Of a DNA stretch of 15,450 nucleotides, positions 2,943-15,450 are shown one piece after another (position 1 is the stretch's first letter; each line of letters begins with the position of its first letter). The notes under the pieces were generated by a model. It did no database searches, was not told the origin of the DNA, and was given only the letters and a program-made list of their open reading frames with translations. Where the stretch lies: the IMG/VR virus record IMGVR_UViG_2541047931_000009; one strand, given 5' to 3'. The DNA is from a virus (lineage: Duplodnaviria > Heunggongvirae > Uroviricota > Caudoviricetes). A program made the translations under genes and the position numbers.

Positions 2943-3155
2943 TCATGAAAGGTAAACATTGGCAGTTGAAGGGCCACGCAGACCATTTATCCGGCAAAAT
3001 TCCACGCGTAATCCGGTGGTAATTTCTTCTGCATCGCGGAGATTGAGCGCTGAAACATGAAGCTGGACATCGATACGACCATCGGATGGGGTGATAAGAC
3101 CCTTGCCGCTTTTGCCGTCAAAGGTTTTGACAATTCCTGTCATTTTACGGGACAA
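2943..3155 (-). CDS. cspF: Cold-shock protein family (CspA paralog), 70 aa
   Basis: Translation [39 protein letters not shown]... has the cold-shock-domain fold pattern; divergent from cspB. Confidence 0.9.
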
Positions 3156-3279
3156 AAAAATTCCTTAATACTGATAACTTGGCGCACTATACACACGTTC
3201 CTGAAGAAAGCTATAGTTTTTTGATGGGGTTGAAGATGGCTGGATGTCTAAAATAAACATTGCTTCATATGTTCAACTA

Positions 3280-3455
3280 TGCGTTAATGATTGCGTCGGT
3301 TTGAAGAACAGACGATATACGAAGTAGTTTACTAAAGCAGTTCTCATTTCAGGTGTTATTCACTTATTCCTTCTTTGAGTCTCTCCAATTAAGTACGAAG
3401 TCGTTTCTGTTATGCAAACCATTTATGCCGAAAGGCTCAAGTTAAGGAATGTAGA
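3280..3455 (+). promoter_or_regulatory. cspB promoter and long cold-shock 5-prime UTR (cold-box-like and upstream-box elements)
   Basis: ATGCGTTAATG core (3278-3290) shared with the cspI upstream region; CGGTTTGAAGAACAGACG (3297-3314) resembles the cspA cold box; GCCGAAAGGC (3427-3436) matches the cspA upstream box just 5-prime of SD AAGGA. Confidence 0.55.
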
Positions 3456-3671
3456 ATGTCAAATAAAATGACTGGTTTAGTAAAATGGTTTAACGCTGAT
3501 AAAGGTTTCGGCTTTATTTCTCCTGTTGATGGTAGTAAAGATGTGTTTGTGCATTTTTCTGCGATTCAGAATGATAATTATCGAACCTTATTTGAAGGTC
3601 AAAAGGTTACCTTCTCTATAGAGAGTGGTGCTAAAGGTCCTGCAGCAGCAAATGTCATCATTACTGATTAA
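3456..3671 (+). CDS. cspB: Cold-shock protein CspB, 71 aa
   Basis: [38 protein letters not shown]... with RNP1-like KGFGFI and RNP2-like VFVHF motifs. Confidence 0.93.
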
Positions 3672-3952
3672 AATTCATCGCTCGTCTGTATACGATAACG
3701 AAGAAGGCTGATGCCTGAGTAGAGATACGGACAGAGTAGTGAATATTGGATCTCTTTAATAAAAAGTAAGGAGGTCCAATACATGAAACAATGGCTAGCA
3801 TATTTGGCAAAATCTTAATCAGGAAAAGTATGCTAACCATTGTGGTGAAGTGCAGGTTTGCTGCATGAATAGTTTTACAGCAGAAGCTAACTGCTGGCAT
3901 GGCAAAACAAAGTGCGTAAGTGGATGACTCCCACAAAAAGCACCACAATCTC

Positions 3953-6182: not shown

Positions 6183-6343
6183 TGCGTTAATGGTGTTCTG
6201 GTTTGTTACAAATTTATCTGAAGCAGTCATTGTTATAATTTTATTATTTGTACCTCTTGAGATTTCCTTGTTGGTTTTTCTCTCTGATATTTTTTTTTCG
6301 GACCATTCTGCCCAAGGGCTAATTTCTTCAAAAGGTAATAATT
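6183..6343 (+). promoter_or_regulatory. cspI promoter and long 5-prime UTR
   Basis: Same ATGCGTTAATG core (6182-6192) as upstream of cspB; about 150-nt AT-rich leader; degenerate upstream-box-like GCCCAAGGGC near 6311-6320. Confidence 0.45.
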
Positions 6344-6556
6344 ATGTCTAACAAAATGACTGGTTTAGTGAAATGGTTTAACCCTGAAAAAGGTTTTGGT
6401 TTCATCACGCCGAAAGATGGCAGCAAAGATGTGTTTGTCCATTTCTCAGCAATTCAGAGCAACGATTTCAAAACATTAACTGAGAATCAGGAAGTTGAAT
6501 TTGGTATTGAGAACGGACCTAAAGGTCCTGCCGCTGTTCATGTTGTGGCGCTTTGA
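6344..6556 (+). CDS. cspI: Cold-shock protein CspI, 70 aa
   Basis: [38 protein letters not shown]...; paralog of cspB (first 13 codons nearly identical at nucleotide level). Confidence 0.93.
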
Positions 6557-6755
6557 GGTAGACAATATTACAAACCATATTCACTTTAGATGCCCGTGTT
6601 GTCATGGTTCCCAGTATAGAACATCATCTTTTGATGTTTCTGACATGAATCCTTTCGGGGCAAAATGTATCTTTTGTAAATCAATGATGATTACATTTGA
6701 TAATATTTCACAATACTTAAATGCCAGCCGTCTGTCGTTGGATTTAAAAAAGTGA
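6540..6755 (+). CDS. ynfQ: Small Zn-ribbon protein (CPCC...C..C), YmcF/YnfQ-like position next to a csp gene
   Basis: In-frame ATG 6540 overlaps the last 17 nt of cspI; [33 protein letters not shown] motif; strong terminator immediately downstream. Exact start uncertain. Confidence 0.4.
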
Positions 6756-8205: not shown

Positions 8206-9400
<1,195 letters not shown>

Positions 9401-13337: not shown

Positions 13338-14034
13338 GAAGATATTCCTTAAAATATTATTGATTTTCATTGCGATATTGTATGTCTGATTCAGGATATG
13401 TTGACTTATACATCGGTTTTGTCTGGGTTATTGGATATGCCAATCCCTAATTTTATTAGGGCATGACTAAAAATGCTGAATATGATAAGGAGAGAAGTGA
13501 TTATCAGTATGCTGTTCATATAGCCTCGAATTAGTAATGTGTTATATATGATATAGTTGACGATTTTTATCTTGGGTGTTCTTAAAGTTCGTAGATAAAC
13601 ATTGTCGTTTCAGGTATACAGGAATGCTAACAGGTGGCAGCAAAAATCAGGCGGTTTATGGCGCAAGCTGAAGCGGCAACTGCAAACTATCTTATGCAGA
13701 GACTCTACACGGATTGGGTTTAAAAGTATACATAGATAACAGTTTTTATCTGAAGAAGAAAAATATCAAGGTGATATAGCCTATATGCCTTTGATGCGGA
13801 GGAATGAATGTGATGGGAGTGATGTATCTGAATAGTTGAAAAACCGCAGACACGCCTTATGCAAGAACGTGCTGCGGTTGGCTGGTAAATTTTTCGATAG
13901 TGTGTGTATTGAATGATTTCCAGCCGTTCTTGATTTTACGCATAAATCCATGAAAAAACCACTTATCTGTTGGGGAGTTTTTTTGGGGCATATATGGGAC
14001 AGAAATAGGCCCCAGATAGACACTGAGATCGAAC

Positions 14035-14122
14035 TCAGGATGCTTTTTAAAAAATGCAACTATCTGAAAAAACCTAGATCAGGATGCTTTTTAAAAAATG
14101 CAACTATCTGAAAAAACCTAGA
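14035..14122. repeat. Perfect tandem direct repeat, 2 x 44 bp
   Basis: TCAGGATGCTTTTTAAAAAATGCAACTATCTGAAAAAACCTAGA occurs at 14035-14078 and again at 14079-14122; a degenerate third CAGGATGGG follows near 14139. Confidence 0.9.
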
Positions 14123-14166
14123 AAACGCCAAGGGAACCACAGGATGGGAAAAAACACCTGTGAATT

Positions 14167-15450
14167 ATGGATTTCCAGTTATATTCGCTCGGCGCAGCGT
14201 TAGTGTTTCATGAAATATTTTTTCCTGAATCATCAACGGCAATGGCGTTAATTCTGGCAATGGGAACCTACGGTGCAGGTTATGTGGCGCGTATTGTCGG
14301 AGCATTTATTTTCGGCAAAATGGGCGACAGAATAGGGCGTAAAAAAGTGCTCTTTATTACCATCACCATGATGGGGATCTGTACCACCTTAATTGGTGTG
14401 TTACCGACCTATGCACAGATTGGTGTTTTTGCACCCATCTTGCTGGTGACGTTGCGTATTATTCAGGGGTTGGGTGCAGGTGCGGAAATTTCCGGTGCCG
14501 GTACGATGCTGGCGGAATATGCGCCAAAAGGTAAGCGCGGAATTATCTCCTCATTTGTGGCTATGGGAACTAACTGCGGAACCTTGAGCGCAACGGCAAT
14601 CTGGGCCTTTATGTTCTTCATTCTCAGTAAAGAGGAACTGCTGGCGTGGGGATGGCGTATACCGTTCCTGGCGAGCGTTGTCGTGATGGTCTTTGCTATC
14701 TGGTTGCGTATGAATCTGAAAGAAAGCCCGGTCTTTGAGAAGGTTAACGACAGTAACCAACCGACAGCAAAACCTGCACCTGCTGGTAGCATGTTCCAGA
14801 GCAAATCCTTCTGGCTGGCAACAGGGCTGCGTTTTGGTCAGGCGGGTAACTCCGGGTTAATTCAGACTTTCCTTGCAGGCTATTTAGTGCAGACGTTATT
14901 GTTTAACAAAGCAATTCCAACAGATGCATTGATGATCAGTTCGATTCTCGGCTTTATGACCATTCCGTTCCTTGGTTGGTTATCCGATAAAATTGGTCGC
15001 CGGATCCCGTATATTATTATGAATACCTCCGCGATTGTGCTGGCATGGCCAATGCTTTCTATCATTGTAGATAAAAGCTATGCCCCGAGCACCATTATGG
15101 TTGCACTGATTGTGATTCATAACTGTGCGGTGCTGGGATTATTTGCTCTGGAAAACATTACCATGGCAGAAATGTTCGGCTGTAAAAACCGCTTTACCCG
15201 GATGGCTATTTCTAAAGAAATTGGTGGTCTTATCGCTTCCGGTTTTGGTCCTATCCTGGCGGGTATTTTCTGCACCATGACGGAATCCTGGTATCCGATC
15301 GCCATTATGATCATGGCATATTCAGTGATTGGTTTAATCTCTGCGCTGAAAATGCCAGAGGTGAAAGACCGTGATTTAAGTGCGCTGGAAGACGCTGCGG
15401 AAGATCAACCGCGTGTTGTAAGAGCTGCGCAACCTTCCAGAAGTCTGTAA
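14167..15450 (+). CDS. ydfJ: MFS transporter (metabolite:H+ symporter family), N-terminally truncated host gene, 427 aa
   Basis: 12-TM-type hydropathy and the MFS loop motif GKMGDRIGRKK; the ORF begins inside what should be TM1 (MDFQLYSLGAALVFHEIFFP aligns with internal residues of ShiA-type transporters), so about 30 N-terminal residues are missing. Confidence 0.85.
   Translation: MDFQLYSLGAALVFHEIFFPESSTAMALILAMGTYGAGYVARIVGAFIFGKMGDRIGRKKVLFITITMMGICTTLIGVLPTYAQIGVFAPILLVTLRIIQGLGAGAEISGAGTMLAEYAPKGKRGIISSFVAMGTNCGTLSATAIWAFMFFILSKEELLAWGWRIPFLASVVVMVFAIWLRMNLKESPVFEKVNDSNQPTAKPAPAGSMFQSKSFWLATGLRFGQAGNSGLIQTFLAGYLVQTLLFNKAIPTDALMISSILGFMTIPFLGWLSDKIGRRIPYIIMNTSAIVLAWPMLSIIVDKSYAPSTIMVALIVIHNCAVLGLFALENITMAEMFGCKNRFTRMAISKEIGGLIASGFGPILAGIFCTMTESWYPIAIMIMAYSVIGLISALKMPEVKDRDLSALEDAAEDQPRVVRAAQPSRSL

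Follow-up and report, generated by a model that had tools for sequence, protein, structure and literature searches.

A probable recent, strain-private 44-bp tandem duplication in the predicted attR P arm of a decayed Qin-type prophage

Why does a 44-bp segment stand twice, head to tail, in front of the truncated transporter gene ydfJ' at the boundary between a prophage and its host? The window, by which we mean the whole 15,450-bp stretch of DNA that was analysed, ends in this gene. The preliminary description of the locus offered three readings of the repeat: a duplicated operator or promoter element of ydfJ, a recombination-site relic at the prophage-host junction, or a tract of variable copy number. 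Tandem Repeats Finder returned 14035-14122 as the sole array in the whole window, with a period of 44, 2.0 copies, 100% matches and no indels, and direct string comparison showed that copy 1 and copy 2 agree letter for letter. The perfect head-to-tail duplication that had been described is therefore borne out. The copies are:

14035..14078, + strand: copy 1 of the 44-bp unit TCAGGATGCTTTTTAAAAAATGCAACTATCTGAAAAAACCTAGA (Tandem Repeats Finder and pattern search)
14079..14122, + strand: copy 2, identical to copy 1 (Tandem Repeats Finder, pattern search and string comparison)

Either of the two could be the ancestral copy. Comparing the bases at the borders (C at 14034 against A at 14078; A at 14123 against T at 14079), we found that the repeat can be extended by 0 bases on either side, so that its borders are blunt, with zero microhomology and exactly 2.0 copies. 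In single-copy relatives, the unit is flanked by GATCGAAC on the left and by AAACGCC on the right. The preliminary description had proposed searching for further copies of the unit; allowing up to 3 mismatches, only the two known copies were recovered in the window, against 0.00 expected from 200 dinucleotide-preserving shuffles. It had also reported a degenerate third copy downstream. The sequence CAGGATGG is indeed present at 14140-14147, but it is a mere 8-nt echo of the first bases of the unit and does not amount to a third copy. The near-palindrome GCTTTTTAAAAAATGC (14042-14057) and the inverted pair formed by CAGATAG (14014-14020) and CTATCTG (14060-14066 and again 14104-14110) are both present as well. 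Divergent arms carry CAAATAA/CCATCTG at the positions of the inverted pair, without covariation, and the pair was rejected as a conserved structure. As a side observation, a GATC (Dam methylation) site that single-copy relatives do not have arises at 14077-14080, where the two copies meet. The gap between the end of the repeat and the ATG of ydfJ' at 14167 measures 44 nt.

Pfam matches, together with the RefSeq annotation of near-identical genomes, identify the window as the late half of a lambdoid prophage of the Qin type, which gives way to the host gene ydfJ. The gene order begins with ydfU (DUF968), the antiterminator Q, cspB/cspI with cspA-type thermoregulators, a lysis cassette and ydfO, and continues with an IS5 transposase, a truncated tail-fibre gene, further tail-fibre segments, pinQ, ydfK, ynfT and ydfJ'. 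Two of these genes matter for what follows:

8238-9254: IS5 transposase open reading frame, between ydfO and the truncated tail-fibre gene, with the IS5/tail-fibre junction near 9400
14167..15450, + strand: truncated ydfJ' (MHS-family MFS transporter without its N-terminal 28 codons; from the list of open reading frames)

No terminase, head or tail genes were found in the prophage of the window by Pfam search and annotation. Because these genes are gone and IS5 stands in place of the morphogenesis genes, the prophage is regarded as defective. The IS5/tail-fibre junction has no match in 5,426 complete E. coli genomes, which indicates a deletion architecture of Qin that is private to the source strain. 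That strain is not in the set, and the best coverage of the whole window by any genome in it is 85%. Over the segment 9401-14078 (approximately 4.7 kb), identity to E. coli B REL606, a genome with one copy of the unit, reaches 99.94%; over the ydfJ' part it is just 99.3%. The truncation of ydfJ was confirmed. The product has 427 aa here, against 455 aa for intact ydfJ in strain AR_0150, where rspB, ydfJ and ydfI are contiguous. RefSeq describes ydfJ' as 'incomplete; missing N-terminus' in FDAARGOS_1285, REL606 and C, and marks it as a pseudogene. The YdfJ' protein, listed in 70,537 blocks, is so common that it does not point to a particular source strain, and a search for the open reading frame that runs across the repeat returned no recorded match. 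The Rfam gathering scan of the whole window returned only two cspA thermoregulators and no match at the repeat. Both thermoregulators are on the + strand (3295-3687, 158.8 bits; 6197-6583, 109.5 bits) and precede the cold-shock genes of the prophage (cspB-like and cspI-like); counting ydfK and ynfT as well, the remnant has a cargo rich in cold-shock functions.

The position of the repeat relative to the prophage end was defined by a four-way alignment of the ydfJ gene of AR_0150 (attB), the intQ side of K-12 (attL), the window (attR), and the phages HannyBb and mEp460_ev081 (attP); the other end of Qin in K-12 MG1655 was aligned as well. The four att sequences share one short core:

14165..14175: crossover core TTATGGATTTC, 11 bp, common to attB, attP, attL and attR (four-way comparison)

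Around this core, attB reads ...GCGCTTGAATTT ATGGATTTC CAGTTATATTCGC and attP of HannyBb and mEp460_ev081 reads ...ACACCTGTGAATT ATGGATTTC AAGAGTCATGCG. The window combines the left flank of attP with the right flank of attB, and attL of K-12 MG1655 combines the left flank of attB with the right flank of attP, so that the flanks are swapped exactly as predicted. The phage Tritos carries one substitution in the core. The core sits in the ydfJ coding sequence, and the ATG that serves as the start codon of ydfJ' falls within it. An exact inverted copy of ATGGATTT, the part of the core at 14167-14174, occurs as AAATCCAT at 13944-13951, which in single-copy numbering is approximately 180 bp to the left of the core; it could be a chance 8-mer or a secondary core-type site. 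Nakamura et al. 2021 sequenced the attP of an excised ydfJ prophage and gave the att as 18-19 bp (PMC8112680, S7 Fig). The core obtained from our alignment is consistent with that published sequence.

To place the unit within the attachment site, a single-copy version of 13830-14175 was used as blastn query against 50,697 phage records. The complete temperate phages PhiR42_1, mEp460_ev081, HannyBb and Tritos match over the full 302 bp with 97-99% identity, and each has one copy of the unit. In the annotations of HannyBb, Tritos and mEp460_ev081, this region occupies a mid-genome place, with the ydfK-like and DNA-invertase (pin) genes on one side and the integrase-excisionase genes on the other. 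In the same three phages, the integrase gene reads toward the core and ends approximately 38 bp past it, with the excisionase gene upstream of int. The HannyBb integrase has matches to PF12167 Arm-DNA-bind_2 (E = 1.6e-23) and PF00589 Phage_integrase (E = 4e-18), and the excisionase belongs to DUF1233. Since the integrase joins an Arm-DNA-bind_2 domain to a tyrosine-recombinase catalytic domain, an arm-dependent, lambda-like intasome is expected. By analogy with lambda, the arm to the left of the core is designated the P arm, the one that would be retained in attR:

13962..14164: P arm of attR, approximately 204 bp here and approximately 160 bp in single-copy relatives (arm homology)

In single-copy numbering, the unit spans -86 to -43 from the 11-bp core, between the putative arm-type sites and the core. 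Judged by these alignments, we assign the 44-bp unit to the P-arm DNA of attR, the phage being a Qin-type lambdoid one with ydfJ as its integration site. The proposed recombination-site relic at the prophage-host junction was essentially right, in that the unit belongs to the P arm of attR and to attP in free phages; as a description it was imprecise.

The arm is shared beyond the Qin-type phages. The arms of Qin-type and Stx/O157-type ydfJ prophages are approximately 78% identical, and the homology runs from approximately 165 bp left of the core up to the core itself. Further left, beyond the arm, the two types are unrelated; the Stx/O157 type has a dinI gene there. What looked like a break in homology at the left edge of the unit (as in GZEC065) was traced to megablast fragmentation, the full alignment being continuous. 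The Stx2a phage record LC727840 starts with unrelated host DNA and was of no use as a divergent P' arm. Two small open reading frames over the arm were considered as genes and rejected: one at 13950-14111 (+ strand) is frame-shifted by the duplication relative to the frame annotated in HannyBb, and one at 13857-13991 (- strand) has no Pfam match. The conserved P-arm block also turned up at two separate places on the 96-kb viral contig IMGVR_UViG_2654588054_000006, which suggests tandem or nested ydfJ-type prophages; such arrangements have been described for STEC (PMC8112680). Exact matches to the block in assemblies from unrelated phyla, a Caldithrix MAG and a 271-bp Alkalicoccobacillus contig, most likely reflect contamination of those assemblies by E. 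coli or phage DNA.

Comparison of the two phage groups then allowed candidate protein sites to be placed in the arm. The features to the left of and within the repeat are:

13837..13879, - strand: terminator-like hairpin followed by UUUUU (RNA fold -20.7 kcal/mol, z = -3.3)
13981..14001, + strand: putative integrase arm-type pair TTTTGGGGCATATATGGGACA, two TGGGRCA half-sites 11 bp apart
14049..14078 and again 14093-14122, - strand: best-conserved block AAAAAATGCAACTATCTGAAAAAACCTAGA, near-invariant between the two phage groups

Within the HannyBb attP, the longest direct repeat pairs TTTTGGGGCATATATGGGACA in the P arm (-140) with TTATGGGGCATGGTTGGGGCA in the P' arm (approximately +60), over 21 nt with 76% identity. 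The double TGGGRCA, a motif picked after the fact, would be a candidate for the arm-type sites that the integrase putatively binds. In the HannyBb stretch it is found at 3152-3172 and 3359-3379. The block TGGGGCATATATGGGACA, inside the putative arm-type pair, is invariant across both phage groups. So is AAAAAAT.CAAC.ATCTGAAAAAAC.TAGAAA, which makes up the 3' two-thirds of the 44-bp unit, and further invariant blocks read CCACAG.AT. and AAAAAACA.CT.TGAATTATGGATTTC. The minus strand of the best-conserved block holds an IHF-like element, TTTCAGATAGTTG. The element has 2 mismatches to WATCAANNNNTTR and, read as AACTATCTGAAA, agrees at 10 of 12 positions with the site of perfect IHF consensus that the same attP carries in its P' arm. 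Within the element, the substitutions found in relatives fall at N positions or keep the final R of TTR, with one more just outside the motif. IHF-like matches in this AT-rich region are not enriched over shuffles. The conservation of the block supports a function, and the conserved 3' two-thirds of the unit are most likely a site for an accessory bending protein, for which IHF would be a candidate by sequence. The perfect IHF consensus, TATCAAATAGTTA, is flanked by AT-rich DNA on its 5' side and lies in the P' arm, 16 bp to the right of the core, a position that may be called H'-like by analogy. It occupies 3318-3330 in the HannyBb stretch and is identical in attL of K-12, on the minus strand. 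The hairpin marks the outer edge of the P arm and is also present in phage Tritos. It is possibly a terminator or a retroregulation element for int transcripts, since circularisation of the phage would place it past attP, downstream of int, and its place presumably resembles that of lambda tI/sib.

The arm can be compared feature by feature with that of lambda. As in the P arm of lambda attP/attR (P1, H1, P2, X1, X2, F, H2), a phage-side arm of approximately 160 bp adjoins a short core. In the ydfJ phages, too, the arm has the late/tail-fibre end on one side and int-xis on the other, and int is oriented toward the core. Their integrase, a heterobivalent one, has a domain for arm binding, one motif recurs in the P and P' arms, a consensus IHF site would lie between the core and the putative P' arm-type sites, and a terminator-like hairpin lies beyond the P arm, as we take tI/sib to do in lambda. 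In lambda, the interval that corresponds to the unit holds Xis, Fis and IHF (H2) sites. Unlike lambda, the ydfJ phages show no sequence similarity to lambda att, and their 11-bp core falls within coding sequence of ydfJ. By Pfam family, the arm domain of their integrase is Arm-DNA-bind_2 and their Xis is DUF1233, and the ydfJ-phage sites are predicted from sequence. One 44-bp arm segment is present twice in the window. Also close are Qin of K-12 (with its ydfJ'/ynfP junctions) and the ydfJ prophages of STEC, with which the window shares the integration site, the core and the right-end genes pinQ, ydfK and ynfT. The K-12 Qin arm is approximately 98% identical to that of the window; it reads TTAGGATG, and its A-run is one A longer. 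The unit is single in K-12 and in every other carrier, whereas the window has it twice. The remnant in the window also differs from K-12 Qin in its deletion architecture, with IS5 between ydfO and the tail-fibre gene. As a lambda-type att arm from the Qin/ydfJ prophages, a family already described, the element is of a familiar kind.

We then compared copy number across relatives. The unit with its arm occurs in approximately 2,045 of the 5,426 complete E. coli genomes. The copy-copy junction, represented by a 50-nt query (14054-14103), was found in 0 of the 5,426 by megablast or by word-11 blastn at E<=1e-5. With this junction-centred query, single-copy genomes can match only as two 25-nt halves. 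In a control with word-11 blastn at E<=10, both 25-nt halves were recovered, spanning 44 nt in the record, in 2,045 genomes, so that low-complexity masking does not lie behind the negative junction search. Queries of 181 nt and 451 nt gave, among the matches listed, two overlapping pieces spanning 137 and 406-408 nt, respectively, as expected for one copy. Scanned for as an exact pattern, the junction has no occurrence in the GTDB species representatives, in IMG/VR or in the JGI metagenomes. Each of 104 IMG/VR and 5 GTDB stretches (109 in total) contains the conserved 32-nt block a single time, and all ten of ten contigs that encode a YdfJ' identical to that of the window have one copy. The duplication is unique to this sequence among the collections searched. 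A small clade of closest relatives might share it, given that the source strain is not among the complete genomes. These counts refute the idea of a copy-number-variable tract, the junction being found in none of the 5,426 genomes (approximately 2,045 of them with the unit) and absent from GTDB, IMG/VR and JGI. Like bacterial intergenic VNTR loci and short tandem duplications, the repeat consists of exact head-to-tail copies in non-coding DNA; unlike VNTR loci, the unit shows no copy-number variation across its approximately 2,045 carriers, which argues for a single mutational event and not a hypervariable locus. It had been suggested beforehand that a single copy in all relatives, without a difference in expression, would point to a neutral recent duplication. 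The copy-number half of that suggestion agrees with our result, the unit being single-copy everywhere examined.

We consider it probable that the repeat is a recent, strain-private and selectively neutral duplication of 44 bp, located in the attR P arm of a Qin-type prophage that has decayed. An error of replication or repair would have copied the 44 bp head to tail, recently and in this genome alone. Copies that are perfectly identical and borders that lack microhomology would suit either a very recent event or an artefact. The change is most likely neutral, a judgement made from its context, because the prophage is a decayed remnant and no promoter directed at ydfJ' results from the duplication.

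An assembly or sequencing artefact, or an introduced or engineered change, with a true sequence of one copy, is unlikely but is the alternative that fares best. The absence of the junction from every collection searched would be expected of it, as would perfect copies whose borders lack microhomology and flanks of 4.7 kb that are 99.94% identical to the single-copy E. coli B. Zero microhomology is unusual in slippage-type duplications in E. coli, and for that reason some room is left for an artefact or an engineered change. Assemblers, however, collapse short tandem repeats more often than they create them, and long-read errors are mainly homopolymer indels, not exact 44-bp copies. The rest of the window also speaks against an artefact, being a natural-looking mosaic that has an IS5 insertion and a ydfJ allele of its own.

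A functional role for the host, in which the duplication would have made or strengthened a promoter or operator for ydfJ' or for the divergent ynfT-ydfK cold-shock operon, appears very improbable. The repeat does lie 44 bp upstream of the ydfJ' ATG, and the unit is AT-rich with A-tracts that might serve as UP-like or bending elements. A standard scan of the + strand from 13900 to 14166 nevertheless found no sigma-70-like promoter at 9/12. A relaxed scan of the same interval found no -35/-10 match at 8/12 or better, either in the two-copy sequence or in a reconstructed one-copy version. The duplication thus creates no promoter facing ydfJ'. Upstream of ynfT, the sole promoter-like site (13725-13754, minus strand) is approximately 280 bp away. 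The sequence is conserved in free phages, where int and not ydfJ is next to it, ydfJ' lacks its N-terminus and is a RefSeq pseudogene, and the two-copy allele is in no other genome searched. The duplicated ydfJ operator or promoter suggested in the preliminary description accordingly finds no support: the repeat is phage DNA that is followed by int in the phages, and no sigma-70-like promoter faces ydfJ'.

The duplication could alternatively have been selected as a lock on the prophage, in which the disturbed P-arm geometry of attR would block Int/Xis excision and so keep beneficial cargo, for example the cold-shock and toxin-antitoxin genes, in place. The repeat does lie exactly between the putative arm-type sites and the core, an interval in which lambda recombination is sensitive to spacing and helical phase, as work from the Landy laboratory reportedly established; we hold this reading to be highly doubtful all the same, as the phage is already immobilised by the IS5-associated loss of its morphogenesis genes, the Qin integrase is a pseudogene in K-12, the allele is unique and not clade-wide in the genomes searched, and the change of phase would be small, 44 bp being close to four helical turns.

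If the duplication is the recent neutral event that we favour, its only predicted mechanistic effect concerns prophage excision, through a second putative accessory-protein site in attR. The putative arm-type sites would be shifted 44 bp (approximately 4.2 helical turns) farther from the core, and excision could be impaired if int and xis, which belong to the other prophage end outside the window, still work. With inactive int/xis, of which K-12 intQ gives an example, the effect would be irrelevant, and to a prophage unable to form particles it would matter little. There is only a slim chance that the duplication is a grounding mutation that blocks excision of a prophage with host-beneficial cargo, or that it alters expression of the ydfJ' remnant; were either true, the locus would be a natural example of att-arm architecture tuned by tandem duplication.

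The finding itself is ordinary and of little consequence: a repeat that had been taken as a possible regulatory element of ydfJ is reassigned. Its by-product is a sketch, with putative sites, of the attP anatomy of phages that integrate in ydfJ. The sketch comprises the 11-bp core, the double TGGGRCA in both arms, an H'-like IHF site, an A-tract/IHF-like block and a tI/sib-like hairpin, and could guide work on the excision of Qin-type and STEC ydfJ prophages. The two-copy allele, if real, would offer a ready-made natural spacing mutant of such an arm.
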